The notes beneath the pieces are model-generated. The model was not told the origin of the DNA. It saw only the letters and a program-made list of their open reading frames with translations, and did no database searches. A DNA stretch of 64,000 bases from Bacilli bacterium (GTDB lineage Bacteria; Bacillota_I; Bacilli_A; RFN20; CAG-826). The DNA lies in assembly GCA_045114745.1 (NCBI GenBank), contig JBGULD010000060.1, positions 676-64,675 of the forward strand, in the 5' to 3' direction. Positions 2,356-56,515 of the stretch are shown here, piece by piece (within the stretch, counting starts at the first letter, position 1; the number at the start of each line of letters is the position of its first letter). The position numbers and the translations under genes were made by a program.

Positions 2356-2356
<1 letters not shown>
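1319..2356 (-). CDS. queA: S-adenosylmethionine:tRNA ribosyltransferase-isomerase
   Basis: 345 aa; N-terminus MDINLFDFYLPEELIAQKP..RDESRLL, PLPPYI and IAIGTTSVRTLE motifs characteristic of QueA. Confidence 0.93.
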
Positions 2357-4394
<2,038 letters not shown>

Positions 4395-31986: not shown

Positions 31987-32895
31987 TCACCTCTTTACAA
32001 CCTTTATTCTTTCTTTATCTAAAGATATTTCACAAATTCTTGCGGTCCTTTGGTCACCTTCTCTTTGATTTGGACCATAATCTCTTCCGTGATAGATGAC
32101 ATATAATTTGCCATTCACTTCTAATACGGAATGATGACCAGTTCCCTCTTCAAATTCATTCTTACAAATGAGGGGGTAATATGTATTTTCATCAGGATAT
32201 TTTTGGAATTTAATTTTGGTTAAATCATCTTCTTTGCTATATGCATAAGCATAACCAATATAATATTTTTCATTTTGGTAGCAGTTTCCGGAATACATAA
32301 GATAGTGATAATCACCTTTTCTTAAATAGAAAGCTCCTTCTATAGTGTGCCAGTGTTGACCCATTTTAAAACGATCTTTCATAAATATCTCTTCATCTAA
32401 TGTCGCTCTCACCATAACCTTTGGTTGCCCCACCATCTCTGTGGGTGAAACCATCTTATCGACAACAATGAGAGTGCCCGCTCTGACTGCTTCATAATCA
32501 TTCGTACTATAAAACATGAATAAATTTTTTCCACTTCTCACGACATGTGGGTCGATAGAAAATGGAGGGGTTAAGAATGTAATAAACTCAAACGGTCCTC
32601 TTGGAGAGTTGCTCTTTGCCACTTGGATCTTTTGTAGGTGGCAATCATCTTCATTTTCCGGCATCGAAGAAACATATAAGTAATATGTTCCATCAATTTC
32701 TATCGCACATGGTGCCCAATATTCTTTTTCGCCCTTCTTGCTATAACAAATGCCCAAATATTCCCAGTCAAAGAAATTTTCACTATAAAAGACTTTCGCG
32801 CCTTCTTTATCAGTCGCGTACATGTAATAGCCATCTTTGCCTTTAATGACATAAGGATCGGCTTCAGAATACTGTTTTGGGATATTTAATTTCAT
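31987..32895 (-). CDS. Cytoplasmic GH43-family glycoside hydrolase
   Basis: 302 aa, no signal peptide; ADPYVIKGKDGYYMYAT, YWAPCAIEIDGTYYLY, SIDPHVV, TIEGAFYLRKGDYHYLMYSG. Ends in TGA. Confidence 0.8.
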   Translation of the reverse strand: MKLNIPKQYSEADPYVIKGKDGYYMYATDKEGAKVFYSENFFDWEYLGICYSKKGEKEYWAPCAIEIDGTYYLYVSSMPENEDDCHLQKIQVAKSNSPRGPFEFITFLTPPFSIDPHVVRSGKNLFMFYSTNDYEAVRAGTLIVVDKMVSPTEMVGQPKVMVRATLDEEIFMKDRFKMGQHWHTIEGAFYLRKGDYHYLMYSGNCYQNEKYYIGYAYAYSKEDDLTKIKFQKYPDENTYYPLICKNEFEEGTGHHSVLEVNGKLYVIYHGRDYGPNQREGDQRTARICEISLDKERIKVVKR

Positions 32896-34277
32896 TAGAT
32901 AATCGCCTCTTCAGTTATCGCATCAAAGAGATGAATCTTCTTCTCTTCAATATATAAATCCATTGGTTTTTTGCTATCGATTAATTCATCGGAAATAATC
33001 TTGCTCACCACTTCAGTATCACCATAGGTGAAGTGAATATAATATGAATCACCTAACAATTCAGAGAATTTAATCTTTGGTTTAAAGGAAGATTCATTCT
33101 TACCTTGTTTGATATTCTCTGGTCTAATACCGAGGATGATATCAAATTCATAACCACTATCTTCGTTAATCTTCTTGGCTTCTTCTAAAGCTCTTTGATA
33201 TCTCAATAATTCATCATCATTATCGATATCGATAAGTTTTGGTTTTCTAAAGATATGTTTCTTCTTTAAAATCTTTTGATTTTCTTCTTCTAAACGATTT
33301 CTCAAAGAATCGATACGGCTTTCGAGTTTAGAAATACTATTTTTGTAGTATTCTTCAACTTCTTTTTGTATTTGCTTATCGAGTTTAATCTTTTCTTTAT
33401 CTTTTAAGATAATCTCTCCTTTGACGTATCTACCAGAAATAAAGTTCATCGCTGGAGAACCAATAAAGGAAGCCACAAATTTATTAATCGGATGACGATA
33501 GATTTCTATCGGTGTTCCAATTTGTTGAATATATCCATCTTTCATGACGACAATACGGTCCGCCATGGTCATAGCTTCGACTTGGTCATGCGTGACATAT
33601 ATAGTTGTGGTCTTTAATCTATTATGTAAACTAATAATCTCACTTCTCATTTGGACACGTAATTTTGCGTCTAAATTAGATAATGGTTCATCCATCAAGA
33701 AGACTTGTGCGTCTCTCACTATCGCTCTTCCTAGCGCAACACGTTGTCTTTGACCGCCAGAGAGGGCTTTTGGCTTACGGTTGAGTAAATCCATGATGCC
33801 CAAGATTTCAGCGGTCCTTTTGACTCTTTGGTCAATTTCTTCCTTTGGAACATGATGAACTTTTAAAGAAAATCCAATATTGTCATAGACAGTCATATTT
33901 GGATATAAGGAATAGTTTTGGAAAACCATCGCGATATTTCTATCTTTCGCGGTGATGTCATTGGAATATAAACCATTGATATATAGTTCACCAGATGTGA
34001 TATCTTCAATACCCGCGATCATTCTTAAAGTTGTGGACTTACCACATCCAGATGGACCGACAAAGACGACGAATTCACCTTCTTTAATTTCTAAATTGAA
34101 ATCATAAACCGCGTGAACTCCACCTTCATAGATTTTATTCACATCAATAAGAGCGACATAATTTTCAATTATATCTTCGTCATTTATCTCTTCTTTTTCT
34201 TGGATTTTGCTTTCATCGAGCACTTCTTTCATCTCTTCTTGCACGACTTCCGCTTCTTTTTTCTTTTTGAAAAGCAT
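32895..34277 (-). CDS. MalK/MsmK-type sugar ABC transporter ATPase, 460 aa, with acidic N-terminal extension and C-domain insertion
   Basis: [42 protein letters not shown]; about 40 extra N-terminal residues ([12 protein letters not shown]..); about 85-aa coiled-coil insertion between [10 protein letters not shown] and ILGIRPENI. Confidence 0.9.
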
Positions 34278-42118: not shown

Positions 42119-42859
42119 TTATTTTGCTTCTTCTTTGGGTTCTTTTGGTTCCTTTTCCTCTTCTTCTTTTTTCTCTTTCTCTTTCTTTTCTTTTTCCGCT
42201 TTGAGTTTTTTGTTCTTCTCAAATTCAATTTGAGCATTCTTTAAGCTCTTGGAGAAAGTGACAAAGAGAATATTCATTGGAATAGAGGCAAATAAAAGCA
42301 AGAATGATAAGAATACAAAACCATTATATGGTTGAGCATGGAAGAAGCTTGAAGCTATGATAAATATTCCGGATCCTAAGGAGCAAACCATTGCCGCAAC
42401 GGCTTTCTTGCGAAGTAAAAGGAATAATCCAAATAACAATAATCCGACACCCGCTAAAGCGATTGAGACTATATAATTTGGATTGATTTCTCCGAATTCA
42501 TAATATTGAGCATCGAGGAAGATCGCGGATATCACAATATAAAAGACTGCGACAAGAGAGTTGACGATGCCAAAAATCATCGCAAGTGTGAAAAATCTTT
42601 TAACGGTTCTTTTGCGACCTTCAATATATTTTTCATCAATCACCACTGGTTTTGGTGCTGGTGCTGGTTTGGGTTGTTGAGGGGCAGGTTGCGCCTGAAC
42701 TGGTTTCACCTCTTGAGAGGCATTATTGGCTGGTTGAGGAGAGACTTGTTGTGGGGCTACTTGTTGAGGGGTTGCTACAACAACTCTTTCACCACATTTG
42801 GTACAAAACTTGGCACCTGGTCTTAAAGGTGCACCACATTTACTACAAACTTGTGCCAT
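42119..42859 (-). CDS. Zinc-ribbon membrane protein with Pro/Gln-rich linker, 4 TM segments and Lys/Glu-rich tail
   Basis: MAQVCSKCGAPLRPGAKFCTKCGERV; PQQVAPQQVSPQP..PAPQQPKPAPAPKP; four hydrophobic helices; C-terminal KKLKAEKEKKEKEKKEEEEKEPKEPKEEAK. Confidence 0.6.
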   Translation of the reverse strand: MAQVCSKCGAPLRPGAKFCTKCGERVVVATPQQVAPQQVSPQPANNASQEVKPVQAQPAPQQPKPAPAPKPVVIDEKYIEGRKRTVKRFFTLAMIFGIVNSLVAVFYIVISAIFLDAQYYEFGEINPNYIVSIALAGVGLLLFGLFLLLRKKAVAAMVCSLGSGIFIIASSFFHAQPYNGFVFLSFLLLFASIPMNILFVTFSKSLKNAQIEFEKNKKLKAEKEKKEKEKKEEEEKEPKEPKEEAK

Positions 42860-42862
42860 AAC

Positions 42863-43231
42863 TTATTTCAACTTTGCTCCGCATTCACCGCAGAAATCCA
42901 TATCATCATCGATTGGAGCGCCGCAAGATGGGCATTGTTTTGCTGGTGCTGATGCCACCATGGCAACTCTTCCACCACCTTTAACTGCTAAAGCGGAAAC
43001 TGTGACTGTTAAACCGCCTTGCCAGGTCACTCTCATATCGCTTAATTCATAACCCGCACCTAAAGCAGCGAGTTCTTCATTCAATCGATCTTTGGCTTGA
43101 TTCAAGACTTTGTTTTGTTTCTTGAGATAGTTTTTGGACTCAATACCTAAAATCATCGTAAAGCCACGACAAATCATGGTGAAAAGACCGATTCCACTAT
43201 TCGCGGACGCAATTAAAACTTTTTGTTCCAT
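42863..43231 (-). CDS. Small YbjQ/UPF0145-like domain protein with C-terminal zinc ribbon
   Basis: 122 aa; ..AKDRLNEELAALGAGYELSDMRVTWQGGLTVTVSALAVKGGG resembles the YbjQ-family core (weak); C-terminal CPSCGAPIDDDMDFCGECGAKL. AGGAG SD. Confidence 0.4.
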   Translation of the reverse strand: MEQKVLIASANSGIGLFTMICRGFTMILGIESKNYLKKQNKVLNQAKDRLNEELAALGAGYELSDMRVTWQGGLTVTVSALAVKGGGRVAMVASAPAKQCPSCGAPIDDDMDFCGECGAKLK

Positions 43232-43376: not shown

Positions 43377-45071
43377 TTATGCTGAAGGAAGGCAATATTT
43401 TGCCGCAGCAGTTTTAATAATTGCGGCCTTAGCATCAGTTAAATCATTTTGCCATGTGCATGTATTCGGAATAGCTTCTTCAAACATTCTATTATAGAAA
43501 CAACAAGCATAAAGATAACTGGTGGCTGGTTTGTTTGCGTCGGTAGTAATTTTACCATAACCAGCATCGACAAATGCATCAAACACTTCAACCCATGCAG
43601 AAGCGAAATCCATACTTTTAACACCCATATTGGTCGCCATTGTTTCTGCAGTTTCGGTATAGAATGCGCTCATTTCGGTATAGTTTTTACCAACACCCGT
43701 ACCGGTTGATGTGTAATTGATACCACCTAATTCATAATCTTTTTGAGTACTTGAACCTCTTGGAGCAAAAACATAAACATTTTCAGTTTCTGCCTTTAAG
43801 AGTGGCGCTATCGCAGCGGCTGCTGCCATTTCACTAGTATTAACAGCGGTGGAATTCGGTGTCATCCTTCGACTAACTTGAATGATAATAGCATCAAATT
43901 CGTATTGCTCTAATTTACTTCTAAGTTCAGCCCCTTTAGCGTATTCGGCTGATGTCATTTCATTCATTGTATAATCGCCGTCAAGAACACTATCAACATA
44001 AACATTCAAACCAATGTTTTCCATCAAAGTTGAATAATGGACGGCCGGACTATAAGAATCACGTAAAATATTTGGAGCACCAATTAATAAAACTCTTTGG
44101 TCGACATTATCAACTGGAGGAGTTGGCGCTGGATCATCTTTTGATGGAATTGGATCTAATGTAGGAACTACATGATCTATCATTGTTTGATCTGCAATTT
44201 CTTGTAAAGTAGATGCATAACTTAAGTTATAAGTATAACGAGCACCAGAGATTCTTTCGTTGAACATGGTGTCAAAAATTGTACAAGCAATCAAATAAGA
44301 ACCAGCGGGAGATGGGTGTTGCTCATCAGTGTGATAAAGATTAATTTCGCTTAGTGGGTGTTCCGCAATACAGTTTTCGTATGCATAACCCGCTCTGATG
44401 ATTTTTCTACCACCCAATCTTTGTGAAACGGCTTCACCGAAGTAGTTCATAAAGTTGCAGTGAGCAGATCTACCAATTGCATGTGTTCCATCTTTAGGAG
44501 CATTGATACCTTCTTGATGATAAACACCGGTTTCACCAGTATTTAATCCCCAAACTGAATAGATGAGAGTTTCCGCACCAGCGGCAACCGCTAATTCATC
44601 CAAGACTTCTGCGGCATCAAGTTCTGCATTAAAGACTGTATCTTCAAATGGAGTCGCTCTTCTTGATGGCTCGATAATGACATAGTCCCATGTTTCGGTT
44701 GTTAATTTGTAGTGGGCTTGGTAGCCAATATCCACTGAAGTGGATGCAAATAATGACATGGTACATGATCCTTGTGTTAACGCTTCTGCATGAACAGGAA
44801 TACCTTGAGCATTAGCTAAGGTTTGGAAAATTGTTGGCATATCATTAAAGAACACTAAACTGTTACCCAAGAATAAAACTCTATATGGGTTGTTAGGATC
44901 CCTATCATGAGGATTCTCAGTAGATGTACCTGGATTTCCACTATCTTCGGAAGATGTTGGTGTGGTATCTGTAGTTGAACCAGGATTCGATGGATTGGTT
45001 TTTGTATTACATGCGGTCAATAAGCCAAATGCACAAAGACCAACGAATATTGATTTCCAAATTTGTTTCAT
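43377..45071 (-). CDS. Lipoprotein with tandem DUF4886/SGNH-like domains (first canonical, second lacking catalytic Ser and His)
   Basis: Lipobox LTAC; domain 1 YRVLFLGNSLVFFNDMPTIF..HTDEQHPSPAGSYL; domain 2 QRVLLIGAPNILRD..TTDANKPATSYL. Start set to MKQIW (45071), 9 nt from AAGGAG. Confidence 0.7.
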   Translation of the reverse strand: MKQIWKSIFVGLCAFGLLTACNTKTNPSNPGSTTDTTPTSSEDSGNPGTSTENPHDRDPNNPYRVLFLGNSLVFFNDMPTIFQTLANAQGIPVHAEALTQGSCTMSLFASTSVDIGYQAHYKLTTETWDYVIIEPSRRATPFEDTVFNAELDAAEVLDELAVAAGAETLIYSVWGLNTGETGVYHQEGINAPKDGTHAIGRSAHCNFMNYFGEAVSQRLGGRKIIRAGYAYENCIAEHPLSEINLYHTDEQHPSPAGSYLIACTIFDTMFNERISGARYTYNLSYASTLQEIADQTMIDHVVPTLDPIPSKDDPAPTPPVDNVDQRVLLIGAPNILRDSYSPAVHYSTLMENIGLNVYVDSVLDGDYTMNEMTSAEYAKGAELRSKLEQYEFDAIIIQVSRRMTPNSTAVNTSEMAAAAAIAPLLKAETENVYVFAPRGSSTQKDYELGGINYTSTGTGVGKNYTEMSAFYTETAETMATNMGVKSMDFASAWVEVFDAFVDAGYGKITTDANKPATSYLYACCFYNRMFEEAIPNTCTWQNDLTDAKAAIIKTAAAKYCLPSA

Positions 45072-45095
45072 AGAAATCATCTCCTTTAAAAATAT

Positions 45096-46346
45096 TTATA
45101 AAATTTCTGGATGGACACAATATGCTAGAACTTCTTCTCTAATAAAACCGAGAGCACCGGCAGAAGCACCGGCTCTGTAGGTAACATAGCTAGGAACCAA
45201 GCGATTAAAGAAGGTTGAATATAAAACGTATCCAAACAATAGATGCTTACTAGCATTAACGAAAGAATGTTTGTTGGCATATGATGCGAATGGAGTAGAT
45301 AAATACATTGGCTTTCCATCAACAACCGTTGCCATTTGATCTGCTAAATCAGCATAATATTCAGCCATTTCTTGAAGTGTTTTTTCTTCGCTATTTGCTG
45401 TTTTGGAATATGAACTTCCACCACTATCAGTAAATATTGATGGGTTTTCAGTGCACCAAGGTGCCAACATATAAATATCATCTGTTTCAGCATGAAGAAG
45501 ATCTTTAATTGCGGCCAGTGAAGTGAGTTCCTTAGACTCAACGTCGGTTGCACTAGGCGTAATACGACGTGGAATTTGGAGAACAATAGTGTCATATTCA
45601 CCATTATTCAAAGCATTTCTAAATCTTTTGCCGCCTGTTGTAGACGCGTTGGCTAGAATTTGGAATTCGTGTGTGGGAATAGATTGGAAGGTATAGGTAG
45701 CAGTATTTCCTAATTCATTCATAATTTCAATATATGAATCCGCAACCCAAACAGGAGCATCAGAATGGTCTGAATCAACAACATTGCAGACATCAGTTGA
45801 ACCAATAATTAAAACATTATGTGAAGTAACTGGTGCTACACAATCATATTTGATTCTTAATTCAGGAGTTGTAAATGAACCAGCTGTAACTTGAATATCA
45901 AAATATGGGGTGTTGATTGCTTGTTCAATGGTTTCGCCATCATCGGCTTGTGTAACTAGACCTTCAACACTATTGAAAGTGTAGGTGAAGTCGGCTGTTC
46001 CAACGGAAGTAAAACCGATAGATTTGAAGCTACCACCAATCATACCTTCAGCAGAGATGGAATCACCAGATTCGGCTGAAAATACTAATTTACTTCCAAC
46101 CCCAAAAACTAAGTTTGCACCACTAACGGTGATGTTTGTGTAATTGAATGTATTTCCGTTAACAATAACACTACCGCTACCTGAAGTTATGTTTGAAGCA
46201 TTAAAAGCAAGTGTTTGTCTATAATCGGTTGGCGTTGTCGCATTAACTAAGCTCTTTTGCTTCGATGTGAATGCAATTGCGGTAGCTGTAACGCTCAAAG
46301 CTAAAGCACCAATACTGAGACACAAAAACAATTTCTTTTGTTTCAT
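45096..46346 (-). CDS. Signal-anchored protein: shared N-terminal module + SGNH-like domain related to domain 2 of the 43377 gene
   Basis: 416 aa; LAFNASNITSGSGSVIVNGNTFNYTNITVSGANLVF..IKYDCV; then HNVLIIGSTD..YDTIVLQIPRRITPSATDVESKELTSLAAIKDLLHAETDDIYMLAPW (compare FDAIIIQVSRRMTPNSTAVNTSEMAAAAAIAPLLKAETENVYVFAPRG). GGAGGA SD. Confidence 0.65.
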   Translation of the reverse strand: MKQKKLFLCLSIGALALSVTATAIAFTSKQKSLVNATTPTDYRQTLAFNASNITSGSGSVIVNGNTFNYTNITVSGANLVFGVGSKLVFSAESGDSISAEGMIGGSFKSIGFTSVGTADFTYTFNSVEGLVTQADDGETIEQAINTPYFDIQVTAGSFTTPELRIKYDCVAPVTSHNVLIIGSTDVCNVVDSDHSDAPVWVADSYIEIMNELGNTATYTFQSIPTHEFQILANASTTGGKRFRNALNNGEYDTIVLQIPRRITPSATDVESKELTSLAAIKDLLHAETDDIYMLAPWCTENPSIFTDSGGSSYSKTANSEEKTLQEMAEYYADLADQMATVVDGKPMYLSTPFASYANKHSFVNASKHLLFGYVLYSTFFNRLVPSYVTYRAGASAGALGFIREEVLAYCVHPEIL

Positions 46347-46379: not shown

Positions 46380-46443
46380 ATTTTAATAAGCGTGTATGAA
46401 TTAAACAATTGACTTTATTGCTAAAAAAGTACAGTATTTTGCT
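46380..46443. promoter_or_regulatory. Back-to-back divergent promoters with conserved TTGCTA direct repeats (cassette 1)
   Basis: Plus strand TTGACT (46409-46414)-N17-CAGTAT (46432-46437)-6 nt-ATG. Minus strand TTGTTT (rc of 46403-46408)-N17-TAAAAT (rc of 46380-46385). TATTGCTA at 46416-46423 and TTTTGCTA at 46437-46444. Aligns gap-free with 52875-52938. Confidence 0.6.
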
Positions 46444-48207
46444 ATGGAGAAGACAAAACCTAATACTTCCTATAGCTGGTTGGGCAATACCAAAAACATC
46501 TATGCTCAAGAAGATATTGTCTATTCACCTTTTTTATATGGCGCAAAAAGAATAGGTATTTTTGAAATTAAACCAAAAGAAGAAATCCGATTAATCTCTT
46601 ATCCATCACAGTACTTCTTCATCATTGTTAATAATGGGACTCTTAGATTTAAACAAAATGATTTAGAAATAGATATCAAAGAAGGAGAGGCATTATTTCG
46701 TGATGCTTCTATAAATTCTGTTTGGGTATCCGCAGATAATGAAAAAGTTGATTGCATGTATTTTTTATTAACAGGAAGCAACATTTCCTTTTTCTATTCT
46801 GAATACGAAAGACGTTCAAATTTGATAATCAAAATTACCGAATCCATTGATAAAATCATTAAACAAATAATAAATGAAGCTAAAGAGGAAACTCTCAATA
46901 AACGAGCATTTTCAATTCTTCTATATTCTTTGTTTTTAGAAATAATTAATCCTTTCGAAGTTCAAACCGTTAATATTACACAAAAAGCTATTGATTATAT
47001 TGAAAGAGAATATCAAAACGATAATTTATCAGTTCAAGATTTAGCGAATTATCTTCACATCTCTTATCACTACTTCTGTCATTTATTCAAACAAGAAAAC
47101 CATATATCACCACAAAAATATATTGCTAAATATCGTTTGAATAGGGCCTTACAATTATTAAAAACAAGCAATCTTGCAATTGAAGATATATTCATCAATG
47201 TCGGATTTAAGAACAAGCAATCTTTTATTAAGGAATGCAAAGAAGAAACCGGTTTGCTCCCATCTGATTATCGAAAGAAGAATAGGCCAATATCCTTAAA
47301 AGCCAAACAAACTAAAAAGATCACATTTACTAATGTCAGTAATATTGGCGATCCATGTATTATTGTGGAAGATAATAAATATTATATGTTCACCACCGCT
47401 AGGAATGGTGGCAATTTAAACTGTTATGTTAGTGATGATATGAAGTATTACAACTTTGTGGGTGAAACAATAGATAAGAATAAATCTTTTGGAAAGATAG
47501 ATTTCTGGGCTCCAGAAGTCATTAAATATAATAATGAATTTTACCTGTTTTATTCCGCAAGAGATAAAGAAGGAACTATTCATATTAATGTCGCCAAATC
47601 ATCAATTATTACTGGGCCATATATTGATTTAAATCAAAATAGACCTTTATTAAATTTAGATAAGGACACAACTGATGGATATCCATTTATCGATAAAGAT
47701 GGAAGAACGTATTTATTCTTCGTTTTAAATTGCACAACTAATGTTATTGAAAACAAACACATTTCCCAAATCTGCGTTGTAGAAATAGAAAAGGATTTCT
47801 CATCCACAAAAGGAGATATCCATATATTGCTCACACCATCGGAAAAATGGGAACTAAAATCTCCAAATAATTATTTTAGAAATGAATCGCCAGGAGTGGT
47901 TTATAAAGACGGAACCTATTTCCTTACCTATTCCGCGAACAACCATCGTGATATCAATTATTGCAGTGGTCTAGCAAAGAGTAAAAACATATTAGGACCA
48001 TATATTAAGAACAAGGAACCAATCGCAAAGAGAATTGAAGGAGTGATATCTTCTCCCGGACACATTTCATATTTTTATGATTTAAAAGGTAACTTTAAAT
48101 GTGCCTATCACATTCTTTCCAACATTAAACAAAACACGTCTGATAGGCGAGCTTGCATATCTTCTGTTTACATAGAAAATAATGAATTGATAATTGATTA
48201 TAAATAA
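46444..48207 (+). CDS. Three-domain regulator: cupin-like sensor + AraC-type HTH + C-terminal GH43 domain
   Basis: 587 aa, no signal peptide; HTH LSVQDLANYLHISYHYFCHLFKQENHISPQKYIAKYRLNRALQLL..GFKNKQSFIKECKEETGLLPSDYR; GH43 motifs NIGDPCIIVEDNKYYMF, FWAPEVIKYNNEFYLFYSA, TTDGYPFIDKDGRTYLFF, RNESPGVVYKDGTYFLTYSA. Confidence 0.85.
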   Translation: MEKTKPNTSYSWLGNTKNIYAQEDIVYSPFLYGAKRIGIFEIKPKEEIRLISYPSQYFFIIVNNGTLRFKQNDLEIDIKEGEALFRDASINSVWVSADNEKVDCMYFLLTGSNISFFYSEYERRSNLIIKITESIDKIIKQIINEAKEETLNKRAFSILLYSLFLEIINPFEVQTVNITQKAIDYIEREYQNDNLSVQDLANYLHISYHYFCHLFKQENHISPQKYIAKYRLNRALQLLKTSNLAIEDIFINVGFKNKQSFIKECKEETGLLPSDYRKKNRPISLKAKQTKKITFTNVSNIGDPCIIVEDNKYYMFTTARNGGNLNCYVSDDMKYYNFVGETIDKNKSFGKIDFWAPEVIKYNNEFYLFYSARDKEGTIHINVAKSSIITGPYIDLNQNRPLLNLDKDTTDGYPFIDKDGRTYLFFVLNCTTNVIENKHISQICVVEIEKDFSSTKGDIHILLTPSEKWELKSPNNYFRNESPGVVYKDGTYFLTYSANNHRDINYCSGLAKSKNILGPYIKNKEPIAKRIEGVISSPGHISYFYDLKGNFKCAYHILSNIKQNTSDRRACISSVYIENNELIIDYK

Positions 48208-48210
48208 TAA

Positions 48211-50538
48211 TTACGTTGATGGTTTTGTTCCTTTATAGAACTCAATCATTGAGAAGGAAACTTTTCTACCACATAAAGCAATACCTAAGTTGTTTGTTTT
48301 TAGACCAGTCAATGTTTGTGTCATGGTGAATACATTTGTGTATCCTTCTGCTTTTCCAATATATTTGTAGGAAATGGTAATTCCGCTACCCTGTTTTGTG
48401 ATAGTTAATGTGACGTCGACATCAGAGAAGTAGGCTTTCATAAATGTCTTCCAATCACTAGATACACTGGTAATGTAATTGCTGCCACTTGTTTTGCTTG
48501 TATAAATTGAGTCAGATGTTGAGGAATTGCCACTGGCATCATAACTATCAATGCACCAATCACTTCTTGATTGGATAAATGCCGCTGCAACTTTGTTATT
48601 AGAGATGCTGTAACTTTCTCCACTATAAGCTGTAGTTGCATCATAGATATATAGTCTTACATGACTGAGGTAAGAATCTGAAGCGGTATCATGGGCGCTT
48701 CCACCTTTTTGATTGAATACTACAGTATAAGAGAAGTTACCAGTAGCGCTATGGACGAGCTTGGTCCAGTTAGTTGGATTCATCGCTGCAGTTCCAGTAG
48801 ATAGGCTTGTTGCATCTTTAACCACCACTGTGCTTGTTAAATCTTCATAATCGGATTCTGCTTCCTCATCATAGATCCAATTTTCACCATCATAATGAGC
48901 AAAGCCATCTTTTGTGATTGCGATTGCTACATTAATGTCTTGTTTTGCTCTAGCAGGAGAAGCAGCCCAACCAGCTGCCGGATTAAATCCAGGACCAAAC
49001 GTCAACAAATCATCGTAATCAAATGTTAATGTTTGGAAAGAAATAAAGACTTCAAATTTAATATTGTAGAGATTTGTGACACTATCGAATGTCGCATTAG
49101 TAATGTAATACTGATCGAAGTTACAACCATTTTTAGAAATATAGAATTGTCTGATGACTTGGATTTGTTCAGTGTGTCCAAAATAGCATTCCCAGTTATC
49201 GACATACCACCAACTGGTGCCATCAACATTCTTCAATGTATCGACATAATAATCCGCAAAAATATAGGCGCCTTCATAAGTCCTTGAACAATAGAAATTT
49301 ATGTAATTCGTGGCGTTTTTGCTGAGTTTATAAGGATGTTTCTTTACATTTTCGGTATAAATCGAATCATTCATAACACCATCGATTTCCACTGTAGATG
49401 CAGGCTCTAAAACAACAAATGTCATCACAAAACTGAGGTCGGTATTGTAACTAACATTAACGGTGCTAACACCTTCGGATTTAGCTAAAACTCTGCCACT
49501 TGAAGATACCTCAATAACATTTTCATCTTGAGCGACATACCCTATTTTGCTCCTATCGAAATTAAGCGGACTAGCCTTTGCCACTATGTCATATGTCTCA
49601 TCCACTAATAAGGTTTTGTTGAGTTCATCTGAATATAATCTTGTTGGTGTGACAAACGTTGATTTAATATCGTCACCTAATAAGTAAGAAATGTTTTTCA
49701 CATATAGGTCAGCGTTTTGACTAAAGATGCCCACTTTGACATTTTGATCACCAAAAGAACTACAAGAGAATCTCTCATAACACATTAAACAATCATCGCC
49801 TTCACCATAAATGCATAACTCATCATCAACTTTACTAATCGCTAATGTGTAATAAGTATCTTCTTGGATAACGTGATTGTAAGGAAGAACGACTTCTTCT
49901 TTTTCAGAACCATAAGAATGATAGAGATATGGGTATCCGGTGTATTTAAAGACCTCTTTAGCGTCGACATATAATAGTTCGCTATTAGAGTCCATTTCTT
50001 CGCCACTAGTTAAATAGAAACCACATTTGCCATCATCAGCTTTGATTTTAAATTTGGCTTCGCAATAGAAATTCTTGGTTTTGAAATTTAAAGCCACTTG
50101 CATACCTTCTTCAGTGAAGTGAATGCCATCTTTATTTATTTTTGAAAAGTCCACTATATCATCACTGTGATAATAATCAATGACATTTGGATGAACGATA
50201 AAGGTTATTTCATCGTAGCAACTTTCGTTGTTAGCATAAGCCGCTCTAATATTGACGGTTTTTATTTCATCAACATCTTTAAAAGTAACGGTGGAGTTTT
50301 CTACGGTAGCAACATTTTCATCGTTACTAGTCCATTTAATGGATTTTCCAATCGGATTAGTGGATACGAAAAGTTCATAGGTGGATTTGCCATAAACATT
50401 GATGTTGTTTTGATCTTCAATGTTGACTTTGACATTTTCTGTTTCTTCATCACCACTAACATCACTAATGTTTTTGTTTGTGGAACAAGCACCTAAGATT
50501 AAACAAATAATTGGGAGTAATAATAATTTGACTTTCAT
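48211..50538 (-). CDS. Large lipoprotein: Big_2-like Ig domains + LamG-like + CBM9-like + C-terminal beta domain
   Basis: Lipobox LGAC; STYELFVSTNPIGKSIKWTSNDENVATVENSTVTF (Big_2-like, a second copy near VAQDENVIEVSSSGRVLAKSEG); VEIDGVMNDSIY..DNWECYF (CBM9-like); C-terminal region resembles the C-terminus of the 51706 gene. Confidence 0.6.
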   Translation of the reverse strand: MKVKLLLLPIICLILGACSTNKNISDVSGDEETENVKVNIEDQNNINVYGKSTYELFVSTNPIGKSIKWTSNDENVATVENSTVTFKDVDEIKTVNIRAAYANNESCYDEITFIVHPNVIDYYHSDDIVDFSKINKDGIHFTEEGMQVALNFKTKNFYCEAKFKIKADDGKCGFYLTSGEEMDSNSELLYVDAKEVFKYTGYPYLYHSYGSEKEEVVLPYNHVIQEDTYYTLAISKVDDELCIYGEGDDCLMCYERFSCSSFGDQNVKVGIFSQNADLYVKNISYLLGDDIKSTFVTPTRLYSDELNKTLLVDETYDIVAKASPLNFDRSKIGYVAQDENVIEVSSSGRVLAKSEGVSTVNVSYNTDLSFVMTFVVLEPASTVEIDGVMNDSIYTENVKKHPYKLSKNATNYINFYCSRTYEGAYIFADYYVDTLKNVDGTSWWYVDNWECYFGHTEQIQVIRQFYISKNGCNFDQYYITNATFDSVTNLYNIKFEVFISFQTLTFDYDDLLTFGPGFNPAAGWAASPARAKQDINVAIAITKDGFAHYDGENWIYDEEAESDYEDLTSTVVVKDATSLSTGTAAMNPTNWTKLVHSATGNFSYTVVFNQKGGSAHDTASDSYLSHVRLYIYDATTAYSGESYSISNNKVAAAFIQSRSDWCIDSYDASGNSSTSDSIYTSKTSGSNYITSVSSDWKTFMKAYFSDVDVTLTITKQGSGITISYKYIGKAEGYTNVFTMTQTLTGLKTNNLGIALCGRKVSFSMIEFYKGTKPST

Positions 50539-50542
50539 ATTC

Positions 50543-51703
50543 TTACTCCTTATAAACAGATTCTGTTACTGAGAATTTATTCATTTGTGAATTCATGACA
50601 GACTCAATAGCAATCATCTTTTGTTTTTGAGTTACTCCGTCTGGACGATAAATAATATCCGATGGATTCTTTCCGGATAAAGTAACGACGAAACTCATCG
50701 CCGCAATATATCTTCCCAAATCATATGTTAAGTGAGATAAATCACGACTTAATCCATCCCCCAAATATGATGAACGAGCATTTTGAATCGCAGTTCCTGT
50801 AGGGATTAATTTATATATCTTTTCATTCGGTTCAATAATGGTTTTATAAACATTTTGTTGTTCGCTATACATTCTGATTTGTGAACCACCAAAATTCGTG
50901 TCCATTAAATCACCTGGTTCACAATAAAATTGACTATAGGCCCATGTACCCATATAAACAATTTTGGTGTAACTTGGAAGATTATCTCTAAGCAAATCCA
51001 AATATGGATTTAGGATAGTAAATGTCGATGGTATACCAGAATTAGAACCTTGTTGGTGAATAACTGCAAAGTCCCATCTAGTATTGTTATAATTAATCGC
51101 TTCTTGAATCGAATAATTAGAGGTAGTTTGCCAAACACCATTACTATACGTTCTAAAATCATAAGCTTTGTTATTGTTGAGCAAGTTGTTGTAGTGAGTA
51201 TCTAAGGTGCAACCACCAATATATAAATTGGCCACCATAAAATCCAAACCTAAATCTTTTGCCACTTCATGAGACCATTTAACGGAATCATCGCCATGAG
51301 AATTGCCTATCCACAAAACATTAAATTTTTTAAGTGGTTTGACATTAACGGTGTAGTTAACTGAACCATTTACTTCTGGAACAGATAAAGTTATTTGATA
51401 TTGTCCTTCATGATACTGATCATATGAAGAATAGTTAACGTCATATTTATCATCGTCAATAAGAAACTTGCTTCCATCTGAATAATGGGCAAGCACTTTC
51501 ATATCTTCGCTAAGAGAAAATGGTTCGTCTAATTCATATGTTGTTTTTGGGTCAACAACTTCAAGATGATCAAAAACGGGCTGTGTAACGTCTTCGCTTT
51601 CACCACTAGATGACGATGAATTAGAAGATGAAGTGTTTTTCGTTGTGCACGCAAATAATAAAGGTATAAGGAAAAGAGAATATACTATCTTAAAGCATTT
51701 CAT
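50543..51703 (-). CDS. DUF4886-like (SGNH-fold) esterase lipoprotein
   Basis: Lipobox LFAC; FNVLWIGNSHGDDSVKWSHEVAKDLGLDFMVANLYIGGCTLDTHY and DLSHLT. Paralog of the 20036 gene. Confidence 0.7.
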   Translation of the reverse strand: MKCFKIVYSLFLIPLLFACTTKNTSSSNSSSSSGESEDVTQPVFDHLEVVDPKTTYELDEPFSLSEDMKVLAHYSDGSKFLIDDDKYDVNYSSYDQYHEGQYQITLSVPEVNGSVNYTVNVKPLKKFNVLWIGNSHGDDSVKWSHEVAKDLGLDFMVANLYIGGCTLDTHYNNLLNNNKAYDFRTYSNGVWQTTSNYSIQEAINYNNTRWDFAVIHQQGSNSGIPSTFTILNPYLDLLRDNLPSYTKIVYMGTWAYSQFYCEPGDLMDTNFGGSQIRMYSEQQNVYKTIIEPNEKIYKLIPTGTAIQNARSSYLGDGLSRDLSHLTYDLGRYIAAMSFVVTLSGKNPSDIIYRPDGVTQKQKMIAIESVMNSQMNKFSVTESVYKE

Positions 51704-51705
51704 GC

Positions 51706-52836
51706 TTATCTAACTCCCGAAGAAGATGTTGATAATAAATCAAATGTGGTTAGCGCGGACCAGTTTCCAATGCCAATTGCCATACCGATATTTGTTGCAT
51801 CAAATATAATTCCGACATCTCTAGTAATGGTATAAGTGATTGTAATATCGTTTTTGCCTTCAACATTTGTGTCAATAAAGAGAACACAAGTAAATTTTTG
51901 TCCACCGCCTTCAGTATTGACGAGAGACATTGTATAAGTCGCAACTGCATCTTTAGTTGCGTTGTTGAAATTCGTATTATCCCCATAGTTAACAGCATTC
52001 TTCGCACCGGTTGATGCCGATAACCAGCTATCAGCGTTGCCAATGGCTTTTTCGGTATTTGTTCCACCTACCATGGTTGTATGATAGGAATCTGCTCTAA
52101 TTTGATAGAAGGAGTTTTTGCAATATCCGGATGTTGTTTGAATGGCAAAATTTTCATCATATAAATCATCGGCATTATAAATAAAGAAACGAGGTCTTTG
52201 AACACGATCGCTACCCGTATAAATCCAGCGCATTGAAAATTCGAACTCGAATTCATTATGTGGATCTAAGTCATGAACCAAAACATTCCAACTCGCAGCT
52301 TGATTCCAGTTGCTGCCCTTGACTAATGTCGGATAGGAAATTTCGGTACAAGAATAATCGCCAGTAATACTTGTAATAACGGAATTGGTTACTGCTTCAA
52401 GTTTAAAATAGGCGGTGTTGGTGAGATCAAACACTTTACTGCTAGAACTAATCTCAAAAGCTTCAATATGAGAATATCCTTCAAAACCGGTATGTAATTT
52501 GAATGAACCGGTTCCCACAACAGTGAGAGTAGTTAAATCCAATAATTCTTCAACATTTTGAATATATCCACCAGCGGTTAAAGCCATATGGTTATTTGTG
52601 GAAGCACTGGCTCCAACATAATTAAATTTCAAAGCATTGCCTTTCTTTGTGGAAACTACTGAAACATTCTCTCCATAAGAAGCGGGTGCATTATCACCAT
52701 CTAAAACAAATTGATATTCAGTATCCGCTTTAACTGTTCCTAATAATCCTTTTTTGTTATTTGCTAATAGACATGTTACGCCGACGGCTAAAGATATAGT
52801 CATCAAACTAGCAAAAATAATTTTCTTTGTTTTCAT
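51706..52836 (-). CDS. Signal-anchored protein: shared N-terminal module + C-terminal beta domain
   Basis: Start set to MKTKKIIF (52836), 7 nt from GGGGGAG; ..GNALKFNYVGASASTNNHMAL..ITGDYSCT; C-terminus ends ..NIGMAIGIGNWSALTTFDLL. Confidence 0.6.
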   Translation of the reverse strand: MKTKKIIFASLMTISLAVGVTCLLANNKKGLLGTVKADTEYQFVLDGDNAPASYGENVSVVSTKKGNALKFNYVGASASTNNHMALTAGGYIQNVEELLDLTTLTVVGTGSFKLHTGFEGYSHIEAFEISSSSKVFDLTNTAYFKLEAVTNSVITSITGDYSCTEISYPTLVKGSNWNQAASWNVLVHDLDPHNEFEFEFSMRWIYTGSDRVQRPRFFIYNADDLYDENFAIQTTSGYCKNSFYQIRADSYHTTMVGGTNTEKAIGNADSWLSASTGAKNAVNYGDNTNFNNATKDAVATYTMSLVNTEGGGQKFTCVLFIDTNVEGKNDITITYTITRDVGIIFDATNIGMAIGIGNWSALTTFDLLSTSSSGVR

Positions 52837-52874
52837 GAAATTCTCCCCCACGAAAAGTTATTTGATACAAGTTC

Positions 52875-52938
52875 ATTTTAAATAGTTCAAAAACGGCATA
52901 CAATTGACATTATTGCTAAAAAAGGGCAATATTTTGCT
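52875..52938. promoter_or_regulatory. Back-to-back divergent promoters with conserved TTGCTA direct repeats (cassette 2)
   Basis: Plus strand TTGACA (52904-52909)-N17-CAATAT (52927-52932)-6 nt-ATG. Minus strand TTGTAT (rc of 52898-52903)-N17-TAAAAT (rc of 52875-52880). TATTGCTA at 52911-52918 and TTTTGCTA at 52932-52939. Confidence 0.6.
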
Positions 52939-54699
52939 ATGAGTGAAAACAAAATTTACGCATTATTTAGCAACATAAAATATATCTATCACCAAGAAGA
53001 TATTGTCTACTCTCCGTTTTTATATGACATTAGACGAATATTGATTGGGGAAATGAAACCAAATGAGGTTGTCTATTTTGAAAAGAATTTTTCTCAATAT
53101 ATTTTTGTAAATGTGAGAAAAGGCGCTATTGAGATAAAAGAAAAAAATTGCAAAACAATCGTTAGAGCAAATAATGGTTATTTTTATCAGCAATATGGTG
53201 ATACTGAATGGAGATGCATTTCTGAAGAAAATGCTGAATGTTGCTATGTAGCCATAAAGGGGAATAATGTTTCTCTTATTTATAGCGAATATAGAAAAAA
53301 AGAAAATGGAGTTATGGAAGTAAATTCCAGACTAGCCGAAACTCTAGAAAATATTTTATTAGAAACCAAACAAACACAAGTTAATAAACAACAAATATCT
53401 GTCTATATTTATTCTCTTCTATTACAGCTTGTGAAAACCGAAGGTTCAAAAAAAGAAAGAATCACCGCAAAGTCAATTGAATATATCGAAAAGAATTATC
53501 AAAACGACGAACTATCAATTGAAGATTTAGCAAGGAATTTAAATATCTCTTATTACTACTTCTGCCACTTATTTAAGCAAGAAAATCTCATATCACCACA
53601 AAAATACCTTTTGAAATATCGCTTAAACAAAGCATTAGAACTATTAAAAGAAAGTGATTTATCAATTGAAGATGTTTCAATTAATGCGGGTTTTAAAAAC
53701 AAAAAAGCTTTAGTGAAAGCGTGTAAGGAAGAGACGGGGTTATTGCCTTTTAAATATCGTAAAGTCAATAAAACAACACCGTTAAAAGCAAAACAAACCA
53801 AGAAGATATTATTCACAAATGTCAGCAATATAGGCGATCCATTTATTATTGTTGAAAATAAGAAATACTATATGTTCACCACGACTAGGAATGGTGCCAA
53901 CTTCAATTGCTATGTCAGTGAAGATATGAAATATTATGATTTTGTTGGCGAAGTACTAAATAAGAATAAAACTTTTGGAAAAACAGATTTCTGGGCCCCA
54001 GAAGTTATTAAATATAACGGGGAATTCTATTTGTTCTATTCCGCAAGAACTGAAAGTGGCATCTTCCACATCAATGTCGCCAAATCAAAAACTTTAGAAG
54101 AACCATTTGAGGATTGGTGTACTGATAGGCTACTACTCAATCTTGATAAGTCCACGATTGATGCACATCCTTTTATAGATGATGACGGTAGAATTTATCT
54201 ATTCTTTTCCATGGATTGTTCAACAAACATCATAGATGGAAAACATGTCTCTGAAATATATGTTGTTGAATTAAACAAAGAACTAAATGGGACAATTGGT
54301 GAAATTATAAAAGTGTCATCGCCGACGGAAGAATGGGAAAAACTATCATCTAATGACTACTACTGGAATGAAGGCCCAAGCATTGTTCATCTAAATGGAA
54401 TATATTATTTGACTTATTCAGCGAATTATTTCGGTGATAGAAATTATTGTGTTGGTGTGGCCACAAGCAAATCAGTCCTTGGACCATATGAAAAGAAAAA
54501 AGATGGACCGATACTTAAAAAGATTAATAATGTCATTTCAGGACCTGGTCATTGTTCATTTTTCTATGACAATAAGAATAATTTCAAATGCGTATATCAC
54601 ATTCATTCCAATCAAGTACAAAATAGCGCGGATCGTCGTGCATGTATATCGTCCGCATTTATTGATTCAAATAATGAATTAGTAATAGATTATAAATAA
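52939..54699 (+). CDS. Three-domain regulator: cupin-like sensor + AraC-type HTH + C-terminal GH43 domain (paralog of the 46444 gene)
   Basis: 586 aa; LSIEDLARNLNISYYYFCHLFKQENLISPQKYLLKYRLNKALELL; identical junction LKAKQTKKI.FTNVSNIGDP; GH43 motifs IGDPFIIVENKKYYMF, FWAPEVIKYNGEFYLFYSA, TIDAHPFIDDDGRIYLFF, WNEGPSIVHLNGIYYLTYSA. Confidence 0.85.
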   Translation: MSENKIYALFSNIKYIYHQEDIVYSPFLYDIRRILIGEMKPNEVVYFEKNFSQYIFVNVRKGAIEIKEKNCKTIVRANNGYFYQQYGDTEWRCISEENAECCYVAIKGNNVSLIYSEYRKKENGVMEVNSRLAETLENILLETKQTQVNKQQISVYIYSLLLQLVKTEGSKKERITAKSIEYIEKNYQNDELSIEDLARNLNISYYYFCHLFKQENLISPQKYLLKYRLNKALELLKESDLSIEDVSINAGFKNKKALVKACKEETGLLPFKYRKVNKTTPLKAKQTKKILFTNVSNIGDPFIIVENKKYYMFTTTRNGANFNCYVSEDMKYYDFVGEVLNKNKTFGKTDFWAPEVIKYNGEFYLFYSARTESGIFHINVAKSKTLEEPFEDWCTDRLLLNLDKSTIDAHPFIDDDGRIYLFFSMDCSTNIIDGKHVSEIYVVELNKELNGTIGEIIKVSSPTEEWEKLSSNDYYWNEGPSIVHLNGIYYLTYSANYFGDRNYCVGVATSKSVLGPYEKKKDGPILKKINNVISGPGHCSFFYDNKNNFKCVYHIHSNQVQNSADRRACISSAFIDSNNELVIDYK

Positions 54700-54784: not shown

Positions 54785-56515
54785 ATGGAAGACAAAAAAT
54801 ACCTCAATTGTCCTAGAAGTCAACTAGTCAGAGACAATTATTTAGTCTTGAATGGTGTTTGGGATTTTGCCTTTGATAAAGAGAATAAAGGTGAATCATT
54901 AAAATATCAAAATGGTTTCAAAAAAGAATATGACATCTTAGTGCCTTTCACCTATCAAACAAAAATGTCTGGTATTGGTATTACTGAAAGATGCGATTAT
55001 GTCTGGTATCAAAGAAAGTTTTCCATCAAAAAAGAACAAGACAAAAAATACCTATTACATCTTGAAGGCGCTGACTATATCCATAAAGTCTTCCTTAATG
55101 AACAATTTGTTGGTTCAGATAGAGGTGCCTATCATCGTCACACTTATGATTTAACTTCTCAATTAAAGGATGGGGATAATTTACTAGTCATTAAATGTGA
55201 AGATGACTACTCAGTTGAGAAGCCAAGAGGCAAACAAAGAAGTAGAGATCAAAACTATGAATGCTGGTATGTTGACACAACAGGTCTATATAAATCTATA
55301 TGGTTAGAAATAGTTAATGAAACATATCTCGAACATGTCAAAATGACTCCTTTCCTCAATGAGAAAAAGATATGTTTTGATTTGGTGATACTAGGTAGTA
55401 ATGCATCAGCGTTTGAAGTGAATTTAATGGAAAATAGCCAATTTTTAGAGGTTTTTTCGCAAAAAATTGACAAAAATGAACAATCTTGTTGTTTTGAAAT
55501 CAAACACCAAATTGAACCCTGGTCAGTGGAGAATCCCAAACTATACGAATTGGAACTTTTACTTAAAAATAAGCAAGGTGAAATCATTGATAAAGTTTAT
55601 TCATATGTCGGGTTTAGACACATTGAAGCAAAAGATGGTTTTATCTATCTCAACGGTCAAAAGTTATATCAGAAACTAGTACTTGACCAAGGTTATTGGA
55701 AGGATTCTTCTTTAACTCCTCCCACTATTGAAGCACTAAAAGAAGATATCGTTCTCATGAAAGAATTCGGATTTAATGGATGCCGCAAACACGAAAAGAC
55801 GGAAGATGAAAGATTCTTATTCTATTGTGATTACTTAGGATATCTATTATGGGAAGAATTACCATCCTTCTATAAGTTCTCCGAAGAATCAAAGAAGAAC
55901 TATTTCTATGAATTACCATTTGTCTTACGAGATAACTATAACCACCCATGTATCATTACTTGGACTTTATTTAATGAGTCTTGGGGTGTTAATCAAATAT
56001 TAAATGACAAAGAACAGCAAGACTTTGTTAATGAGATGTATCACTTTGTGAAGAAATATGATCCATATCGATTCGCTATCACAAATGACGGCTGGGTTCA
56101 TACATTATCAGACATCATTACTATCCATCACTACTGCCAAGATGGAGAAAAGTTGTATTCATTCTATAAGGATAAAGAATTAACAATGACTCAAGAAATC
56201 TGGACAGAGCACCACAACGGCGCATTTGCTAAAGGATATAAATATAATGGGCAACCAGTAATTATCTCTGAATTTGGTGGTACGGCATTTATTAAGAATA
56301 CACACGATGGAAATTGGGGCTATGGCGTCGGTGTTAAAGATGATAAAGAATATGTTGAGAGATTAACTTCTTTATTTAAAGGTATTCAAAGAATCGATTA
56401 TGTTTCAGGCTATTGCTACACTCAAGTCAGCGACGTCGAACAAGAAGTCAACGGCTTATTGAATCATGATCATAAACCAAAAATAGACCCTCAATTGTTA
56501 AAGAAGGTCCAATAG
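54785..56515 (+). CDS. Cytoplasmic GH2-family glycoside hydrolase (beta-galactosidase/beta-glucuronidase-like)
   Basis: 576 aa, no signal peptide; LNGVWDFAFD, LHLEGADYIHKVFLNEQFVG, PWSVENPKLYELEL, NHPCIITWTLFNESWG (acid/base Glu), VIISEFGG (nucleophile Glu). Confidence 0.8.
   Translation: MEDKKYLNCPRSQLVRDNYLVLNGVWDFAFDKENKGESLKYQNGFKKEYDILVPFTYQTKMSGIGITERCDYVWYQRKFSIKKEQDKKYLLHLEGADYIHKVFLNEQFVGSDRGAYHRHTYDLTSQLKDGDNLLVIKCEDDYSVEKPRGKQRSRDQNYECWYVDTTGLYKSIWLEIVNETYLEHVKMTPFLNEKKICFDLVILGSNASAFEVNLMENSQFLEVFSQKIDKNEQSCCFEIKHQIEPWSVENPKLYELELLLKNKQGEIIDKVYSYVGFRHIEAKDGFIYLNGQKLYQKLVLDQGYWKDSSLTPPTIEALKEDIVLMKEFGFNGCRKHEKTEDERFLFYCDYLGYLLWEELPSFYKFSEESKKNYFYELPFVLRDNYNHPCIITWTLFNESWGVNQILNDKEQQDFVNEMYHFVKKYDPYRFAITNDGWVHTLSDIITIHHYCQDGEKLYSFYKDKELTMTQEIWTEHHNGAFAKGYKYNGQPVIISEFGGTAFIKNTHDGNWGYGVGVKDDKEYVERLTSLFKGIQRIDYVSGYCYTQVSDVEQEVNGLLNHDHKPKIDPQLLKKVQ

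Follow-up and report, generated by a model that had tools for sequence, protein, structure and literature searches.

It is well established that the effector domain of a one-component regulator can derive from an enzyme, and also that a regulator gene may face its target, as araC does in lying divergently from araBAD. Here we describe a pair of paralogous genes in a stretch of 64,000 nucleotides from a Bacilli bacterium (assembly GCA_045114745.1, contig JBGULD010000060.1; hereafter the window, i.e., that stretch at its full length), each of which encodes an AraC-type regulator continued, beyond its DNA-binding domain, by a glycoside hydrolase family 43 (GH43) propeller. We lean, with a little better than even confidence, toward viewing these proteins as cytoplasmic one-component regulators in which the GH43-derived domain would bind an imported oligosaccharide, signal to the helix-turn-helix (HTH) pair and control a divergent operon.

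Up to residue 282 the fused proteins resemble AraC of Escherichia coli and BgaR of Clostridium perfringens, with a cupin-type barrel and a helical region followed by a double HTH; as for AraC, the fused gene is divergent from its presumed target operon, and a further likeness is that the candidate half-sites are directly repeated with a period of 21 bp. They differ from this type in adding a propeller of 300 amino acids (aa) after the HTH, in an N-terminal domain that stays under the Pfam AraC_binding threshold and in the position of the conserved site, which extends over the promoter and start codon of the regulator gene itself. Btr, Ada, AryK and Rsp likewise carry a large C-terminal domain after an AraC HTH, and the HTH of the window proteins matches their NCBIfam models; however, only the HTH aligns, the scores (22-57 bits) lie below the cut-offs of the AryK/Rsp/Btr-type equivalogs (400-900), the appended domains have no detectable homology, and a search for kinship between the GH43 domain and the parts that follow the HTH in AryK, Rsp and Btr found none. 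The same models temper a statement made in a preliminary description of this DNA, namely that canonical AraC proteins end after the HTH, which holds as a generalisation only.

The propeller itself is closest to the GH43 enzyme HoAraf43 of Halothermothrix orenii (4QQS) and the CDD group cd08991, with which it shares the fold, the base Asp, the pKa-modulating Asp, the Trp platform and an Arg, whereas its fusion to a transcription factor, a general acid that across the family is mostly Gln or Asp, and a +1 Trp that is mostly Arg set it apart; neither the Gln/Asp acid nor the +1 Arg ever occurs in the stand-alone relatives compared (n=9). A precedent for a glycoside hydrolase module in gene control is the anti-sigma factor RsgI6 of Clostridium thermocellum, whose GH10 module has very low activity, has kept binding and serves as a polysaccharide sensor (PMC4711584). 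The likeness lies in the use of a GH-family module as the carbohydrate-sensing part of a transcription-control protein; in contrast, RsgI6 is a membrane anti-sigma factor that senses an extracellular polymer and signals to SigI6 by proteolysis, whereas the fused proteins are soluble, cytoplasmic, predicted to bind DNA directly and built on another GH family, with neither a transmembrane segment or signal peptide nor an RsgI domain in Pfam. In BzdR the effector domain is shikimate-kinase-like, and loss of enzyme activity accompanied its regulatory recruitment (PMC3602430). As in BzdR and in trigger enzymes with DNA-binding domains, a DNA-binding domain is here linked to an enzyme-descended one, and the loss of activity in BzdR parallels the Glu to Gln/Asp series of the fused family; the HTH class and the enzyme fold differ, and the fused family, unlike BzdR, mixes members with and without the catalytic residues. 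Our search of the open-access literature returned no paper on an AraC-GH43 fusion or an inactive-GH cytoplasmic sensor, and no description of a cytoplasmic AraC regulator using a GH propeller, matching the preliminary statement that no characterised example was known; the architecture is a real, rare and uncharacterised variant.

The two genes and the parts of the first are as follows (all on the + strand).
46444..48207, +: paralog 1, 587 aa, fusion of an AraC-type regulator and GH43 (open reading frame; Pfam HTH_18 and Glyco_hydro_43; AlphaFold2 model with a predicted local distance difference test score, pLDDT, of 84)
46483..46953, +: paralog 1, aa 14-170, predicted cupin-type sensor/dimerisation domain and helical region (predicted structure, Foldseek)
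46969..47289, +: paralog 1, aa 176-282, double HTH DNA-binding domain (PF12833, E 1.8e-19; PDB profile matches)
47290..47328, +: paralog 1, aa 283-295, Lys-rich linker or junction, SLKAKQTKKITFT (pLDDT <50 at 283-290; kept within the family)
47329..48204, +: paralog 1, aa 296-587, GH43 five-bladed propeller (PF04616; 4QQS, E 2e-48, TM-score 0.86)
52939..54699, +: paralog 2, same architecture, 586 aa (open reading frame; Pfam HTH_18 and Glyco_hydro_43)

Neither open reading frame contains an internal stop, and the two products are 55% identical across their full length. Pfam HTH_18 (PF12833) covers aa 200-278 of paralog 1 (E 2e-19, 70 bits) and aa 197-275 of paralog 2 (E 2e-17, 64 bits; cut-off 33.6), PF00165 exceeds its cut-off as well, and the HTH profile matches in PDB are the DNA-binding domains of AraT, YesN, AraC, MarA and SoxS. 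Glyco_hydro_43 (PF04616) covers aa 303-580 (E 2e-39, 136 bits) and aa 300-570 (E 4e-50, 171 bits), respectively, against a cut-off of 32.2. Between both domains the junction L-K-A-K-Q-T-K-K-I-x-F-T-N-V-S-N-I-G-D-P is identical in the two paralogs. The N-terminal 170 residues have no significant Pfam match (AraC_binding is not reported for paralogs 1 and 2, with a faint match only for the relatives P0019 and P0097); in the models of paralog 1, aa 17-111 form beta strands and aa 114-168 helices, and a model of aa 1-285 (pLDDT 82) matches the lactose-sensor domain of BgaR (6NWH; Foldseek TM-score 0.76), the arabinose-binding domain of AraC (2ARC; 0.63) and, over its full length, ToxT and Rns. Because of these matches we read residues 1-282 as a complete AraC-type regulator and the GH43 propeller as an addition, as judged from the models; membership in the AraC/XylS family is thus seen by sequence for the double HTH and by fold only for the cupin-type domain. 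Both proteins lack a signal peptide and any transmembrane or hydrophobic segment, which supports a cytoplasmic location. Most of what the preliminary description had claimed for these proteins, i.e., two paralogous open reading frames at these coordinates, an N-terminal AraC-type barrel (by fold, without Pfam support), a double HTH, the conserved junction LKAKQTKKI-x-FTNVSNIGDP and a cytoplasmic location, is thereby confirmed, and the checks that it proposed gave both domains well over their gathering scores in both proteins and an AlphaFold model whose GH43 part superposes on 4QQS.

HoAraf43 is the nearest solved structure by sequence (E 2e-48), and the AlphaFold model of paralog 1 lies on it with a Foldseek TM-score of 0.86 (E 7e-28). 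In 4QQS, Asp17 is the base, Trp72 the sugar platform, Asp126 the pKa modulator and Glu195 the acid, Trp193, two residues before the acid, has been proposed to form the +1 subsite, and the activity on p-nitrophenyl (pNP) alpha-L-arabinofuranoside (Araf) is measurable but weak (PMC4356313). Asp17, Asp126 and Glu195 align with D303 (47350-47352), D411 (47674-47676) and E481 (47884-47886) of paralog 1 and with D300, D408 and E478 of paralog 2, and Trp72 with W355 and W352, respectively. Paralog 1 also has R568 and carries R479 in place of the +1 Trp (RNESP, not WNEGP), whereas paralog 2 shows the complete stand-alone-type WNEGP motif (W476 and E478, with R566). Hence both window proteins belong to GH43 (CAZy GH43, clan GH-F) by PF04616, the five-bladed propeller and the Asp/Asp/Glu triad, their residues would permit an inverting glycosidase activity, and paralog 2 appears from its motif to be the most enzyme-like member of the family, paralog 1 being an intermediate.

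A different picture emerges from the family at large, as seen in an alignment of 15 fused sequences and the 9 stand-alone GH43 proteins nearest to them. At the catalytic and subsite positions all nine stand-alone proteins carry Asp, Trp, Asp, Trp-Asn-Glu and Arg, with W-N-E-G-P kept. By contrast, the acid is Gln in 7/15 fused sequences (P0003-P0008 and L002) and Asp in a further 3/15 (P0002, P0010 and P0011), so that the triad is incomplete in 10/15; Glu persists only in paralog 1 and a near-identical copy, in paralog 2 and P0009, and in P0019, the deepest fused branch. The codons at this position are GAA, CAA and GAT, each variant thus being one step from Glu, and on the tree of the GH43 domain the changes fall on at least four or five separate branches. 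The +1 Trp has become Arg in all fused members but paralog 2 and P0009, a fusion-specific change that paralog 1 already has, its closest relatives P0002 (Asp) and P0003 (Gln) being both without the acid Glu. The residues of the -1 subsite (D303, W355, D411 and R568) are almost invariant in the fused family, the exceptions including a Glu that replaces the base Asp in P0007 and another that replaces the modulating Asp in P0002.

Even so, the GH43 domain as a whole is well conserved. Its mean pairwise identity of 59% lies between that of the HTH domain (65%) and that of the cupin domain (40%), the least conserved of the three, and the ratio of nonsynonymous to synonymous substitution rates (dN/dS) of the GH43 domain is 0.03-0.16 (0.155 between two Gln-bearing members), values that are rough for distant pairs, where dS is near saturation (>1.1). 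From these comparisons the GH43 domain is under purifying selection and not decaying, and the repeated replacement of the acid within a preserved pocket is what would be expected of a hydrolase turning into a binding module. The preliminary emphasis on an intact catalytic triad therefore calls for a distinction, since all three positions are present in both window copies, as had been claimed, but the intact triad is not a conserved property of the family, in which the acid is replaced by Gln or Asp in 10/15 and the +1 Trp, outside the paralog 2 lineage, by Arg.

A second line of evidence concerns the DNA directly upstream of both regulators, where a conserved block abuts the start codon.
46405..46446, +: predicted promoter/operator block abutting the ATG of paralog 1, ACAATTGAC (-35) followed by TTGCTA-N15-TTGCTA
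52900..52941, +: predicted block abutting the ATG of paralog 2

This block of ~41 bp has the layout ACAATTGAC-w-TTATTGCTAAAAAAG-nnn-A-r-TATTTTGCT-ATG, occurs in the window only at the two regulator starts (0.06 copies expected by chance) and recurs in seven independent loci, even where the proteins are only 41% identical; 28 of its columns are invariant. It comprises TTGAC(A/T), a spacer of 17-18 nucleotides (nt) and a -10 element that ends 5-6 nt before the ATG; for paralog 2, no promoter-like site in the region ranks above TTGACA-18-AATATT, whose end is 5 nt from the ATG. The exact direct repeat TTGCTA-N15-TTGCTA, with a 21-bp period, is found in the window only at these two starts and forms, together with ACAATTGA, the candidate operator elements; in P0019 the block sequence differs, and a TTTTGTTA repeat with the same 21-bp period stands at the equivalent place. 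No Shine-Dalgarno sequence precedes the ATG of either regulator, whereas the divergent gene has GGAGGA and neighbouring genes GGAGG; because of this lack, and because the -10 element ends 5-6 nt before the ATG, the regulator mRNAs are probably leaderless or near-leaderless. The same leaderless-type arrangement of the start is seen in all loci of the family. Further copies of the block, which might have pointed to a wider regulon, were not found in the window, and an RNA element was ruled out (no Rfam match; fold z-scores of +0.8, -1.1 and +0.9 against shuffled sequences). We interpret the block as the putative promoter of the regulator, overlapped by a candidate operator, with its upstream end adjoining a weak divergent -35 region. 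The recognition helices of the HTH domain are nearly invariant in the family, in parallel with the invariant DNA block, and the conserved candidate site leads us to predict sequence-specific DNA binding and effector-dependent control of transcription; the fragment 46380-46446, suggested earlier for an electrophoretic mobility shift assay, contains the block.

The genes that face the regulators, and the one behind paralog 2, are the following.
43377..46346, -: divergent operon 1, predicted target (signal/lipoprotein N-termini; weak DUF4886 match; conserved pairing)
45096-46346, -: operon 1, exported 416-aa protein
43377-45080, -: operon 1, 567-aa lipoprotein with two tandem SGNH/DUF4886-like halves
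48211..52851, -: divergent operon 2, predicted target (exported 381-aa protein, 386-aa Big_3+DUF4886 lipoprotein, 775-aa Big_2 lipoprotein)
54785..56515, +: glycoside hydrolase family 2 (GH2) gene, 576 aa, 85 nt downstream of paralog 2 (Pfam GH2 domains)

A divergent exported gene of SGNH/DUF4886/GDSL type, mostly unannotated, is kept in 8/8 other loci of the family that were examined, while the other flanks differ; the 567-aa lipoprotein is 54% identical to its counterpart adjoining P0007, and the pairing of operon 2 recurs at P0010. Opposite P0019, the most divergent fused member, there is no DUF4886-type gene but one for an exported GDSL-type protein of 1014 aa (L153 1900-4944, - strand, GCA_002070905.1), so that the association of the regulator with exported proteins of the SGNH superfamily reaches beyond the rumen clade. 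No homology is detectable between the first divergent genes of the two operons (416 aa and 381 aa), and searches of solved structures matched the target proteins only to the uncharacterised structural-genomics entries 4I8I and 4S1P, the latter being the sole match of the 567-aa lipoprotein. This lipoprotein has a block I-like 'LFLGNS' motif and a DUF4886 match (E 0.005) under the Pfam threshold.

Overall, the window is a region of glycan utilisation, with more GH43 genes, ATP-binding cassette (ABC) sugar importers and SASA/GDSL/DUF4886 esterase-like genes; since it carries such importers and other GH43 genes, import of an oligosaccharide into the cytoplasm is plausible. The GH2 gene is possibly co-transcribed with paralog 2, no + strand terminator being seen in the gap between them. 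Its nearest PDB entries are 7XYR, labelled beta-glucuronidase, and 9J6N, a beta-D-galactofuranosidase; alongside the Araf-type GH43 domain, this is a hint that glycans containing furanosides are processed by the locus.

Taken together, these findings would fit the following scheme. A GH43 propeller would have been recruited from a stand-alone intracellular glycosidase and fused to the C-terminus of an AraC/BgaR-type regulator, and in the family at large it would now serve as a ligand-binding effector module instead of an enzyme, with its -1 pocket kept and its +1 site remodelled. In most members, which have lost the general acid, the imported oligosaccharide would be bound and not cleaved. The ligand is probably furanoside-terminated, with an arabinofuranosyl- or galactofuranosyl-type end, an identification that we hold with low confidence and that follows from the weak cleavage of pNP-Araf by the nearest characterised enzyme and from the galactofuranosidase-like GH2 neighbour. 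Occupancy would be relayed to the HTH pair through the short conserved Lys-rich linker, and the regulator would bind the direct repeats 21 bp apart, which overlap its own, probably leaderless, promoter and directly precede the weak -35 region of the divergent one. In whichever direction regulation runs, the protein is predicted to act on its own gene and on the divergent operon, which encodes exported SGNH/DUF4886 esterase-like lipoproteins; for paralog 2, the GH2 gene may be a further target. Given the full triad in both window copies and the full WNEGP in paralog 2, slow hydrolysis of the ligand may persist in these two proteins, in which case the signal would limit itself. The preliminary description had left two options side by side, that the enzyme domain senses a sugar for the DNA-binding domain or that hydrolysis is coupled to regulation; the comparative data favour the former over the latter, because the acid is replaced in 10/15 fused sequences and kept in 9/9 stand-alone ones while the domain stays constrained.

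Several points weigh against this scheme. Ligand binding, DNA binding and regulation are all predictions; the family sample is small (12 non-redundant sequences); the arrangement of the domains relative to each other is uncertain in the AlphaFold2 model (predicted TM-score, pTM, 0.52); the -10 element is weak (with a spacing of 17 nt, 3/6 positions match); and in DNA so rich in AT the significance of the 21-bp repeat is no more than moderate. In addition, catalysis could be of importance in this organism, given the triad in both window copies, an Asp at the acid position might still support some activity, and the N-terminal cupin domain could be the real sensor, with the GH43 domain having another role.

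A first rival explanation, which we judge unlikely, is that the protein is a trigger enzyme, an active exo-glycosidase whose catalytic cycle, or the monosaccharide that it releases from imported oligosaccharide and the cupin domain catches (as AraC does arabinose and BgaR lactose), sets the DNA-binding state, so that hydrolysis would belong to signalling itself in this organism. Such a mode is possible for the two window copies, which keep Asp/Asp/Glu, Trp355 and Arg568, all the more so as paralog 2 retains the full WNEGP of stand-alone enzymes, HoAraf43 is active, if weakly, on its pNP substrate, the N-terminal domain resembles the sugar-binding domains of AraC and BgaR, and the deepest fused branch, P0019, still has its Glu. 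However, paralog 1 carries the fusion-specific W to R change at +1, and most fused orthologues, including P0002 (Asp) and P0003 (Gln), are without the acid and yet have the same architecture, neighbourhood and operator, so the conserved function cannot require hydrolysis and the mode would not extend to the Gln/Asp orthologues. A related proposal, which we regard as improbable, is that GH43 serves the transcription factor as a catalytic timer: Glu-bearing members, the two window copies among them, would reset the switch by slowly cleaving the inducer that they have bound, and the Gln/Asp orthologues would be locked in a binding-only state.

We find it very improbable that the GH43 domain is a structural or oligomerisation module, or a mere passenger, with sensing left to the N-terminal cupin domain only. 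Many GH43 enzymes are oligomers, the N-terminal half amounts to a complete AraC-type regulator with a stand-alone homologue (P0097), and loss of catalytic residues is expected of a domain that is no longer an enzyme; a conserved pocket is, however, unexpected for a pure scaffold, and here the sugar-contacting -1 residues (W355, D303, D411 and R568) are almost invariant, GH43 is more conserved than the cupin domain (59% against 40% identity; dN/dS 0.03-0.16) and the repeated Glu to Gln change is the classic substitution that preserves binding. Finally, an artefact whereby sequencing or assembly error joined adjacent genes for an AraC regulator and a GH43 enzyme, an idea based solely on the rarity of the architecture and for which no support was found, can be dismissed as next to impossible, since the fusion recurs in at least six independent assemblies at 38-99% identity with indels kept in frame, the two window paralogs share the junction and the junction sequence is conserved across the family, a recurrence that answers without read mapping the worry raised in the preliminary description.

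This recurrence includes an identical arrangement of the fused genes in an independent NCBI assembly (GCA_045222705.1) and an ENA metagenome scaffold, and remoter fused relatives (38-69% identity) in other ENA rumen/gut assemblies, in the rumen Erysipelotrichaceae metagenome-assembled genome RUG13091 and in GCA_002070905.1; the ENA metagenomes with fused genes are WILK20, STEW19 and XIEF21. The family comes from ruminant-gut Erysipelotrichaceae and one other assembly, and it is small by every count: a profile query found 11 clusters at 90% identity among 5.8 billion, to which P0019, detected only by an exhaustive HMMER search, is added; at 50% identity there are 3 clusters among 1.84 billion representatives; and a member occurs in 1/185,579 species-representative genomes. 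HTH and GH43 came together in 3 clusters among the top 150 matches of those 1.84 billion representatives, the other two-stretch matches in this top 150 having no AraC HTH. The architecture is therefore not widespread among close GH43 relatives, at least as far as those top 150 matches reach, below which remote fusions on other GH43 subfamilies would rank; independent AraC fusions with other GH43 subfamilies may exist. In 80 genome loci no open reading frame other than the family's own contained both domains, 241 million JGI metagenome records held no full-length member, and the sequence sources searched give the proteins no name. Each half is also found on its own: P0097 (277 aa; cupin and HTH) is 32% identical to residues 13-278, and P0021 and P0022, GH43 proteins of 301 aa, share 45% and 43% identity, respectively, with residues 291-587.

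The surroundings offer some further observations. The region is unusually rich in AraC regulators, with three conventional short ones of 254-293 aa (19247-20035, +; 21799-22680, -; 63055-63819, -), the longest of which (293 aa) aligns with the fused protein over residues 82-281 of the latter (E 2e-20). Two MalK-type ABC ATPases are unusually long (770 aa at 8774-11086, -, and 460 aa at 32895-34277, -), the former with an ABC_tran match in two stretches and ~400 extra C-terminal residues without a Pfam match. Two adjoining zinc-ribbon proteins of 122 aa and 246 aa (Zn_ribbon/DZR/DUF7575; 42119-43231, -) sit between a LacI-regulated ABC/GH43 cluster and divergent operon 1, a position that they also hold in the related loci L001 and L082. 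Exported proteins without a Pfam match, encoded at 45096-46346 (-), at 28229-29860 (-) and at L081 6613-7878, have an apparent common N-terminal segment, 'FNASN[IL]xxGSGxVxxNGNxF', which may be an undescribed domain family tied to SGNH/DUF4886-like proteins; the similarity between the two products from the window was noted by eye only. A queuosine cluster (QueH, QueA, Tgt; 709-3480, -) at the left edge of the window is unrelated to the glycan loci.

These findings bear both on the organisms that carry the fusion and on how enzymes become receptors. The regulator points to unannotated exported SGNH/DUF4886-like lipoproteins as parts of glycan utilisation in ruminant-gut Erysipelotrichaceae, and it is possibly a new oligosaccharide-responsive switch for synthetic biology. 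Were the catalytic-timer proposal true, transcription would report the flux of an oligosaccharide and not its concentration, and the family would be a natural enzyme-to-receptor series with two paralogs of one genome at different stages (WNEGP and RNESP). Above all, the fused family is a compact test case of an enzyme becoming a receptor, in which members with Glu, Asp and Gln at the acid position share architecture, neighbours and operator, and this natural Glu/Asp/Gln series makes the transition from enzyme to sensor directly testable.

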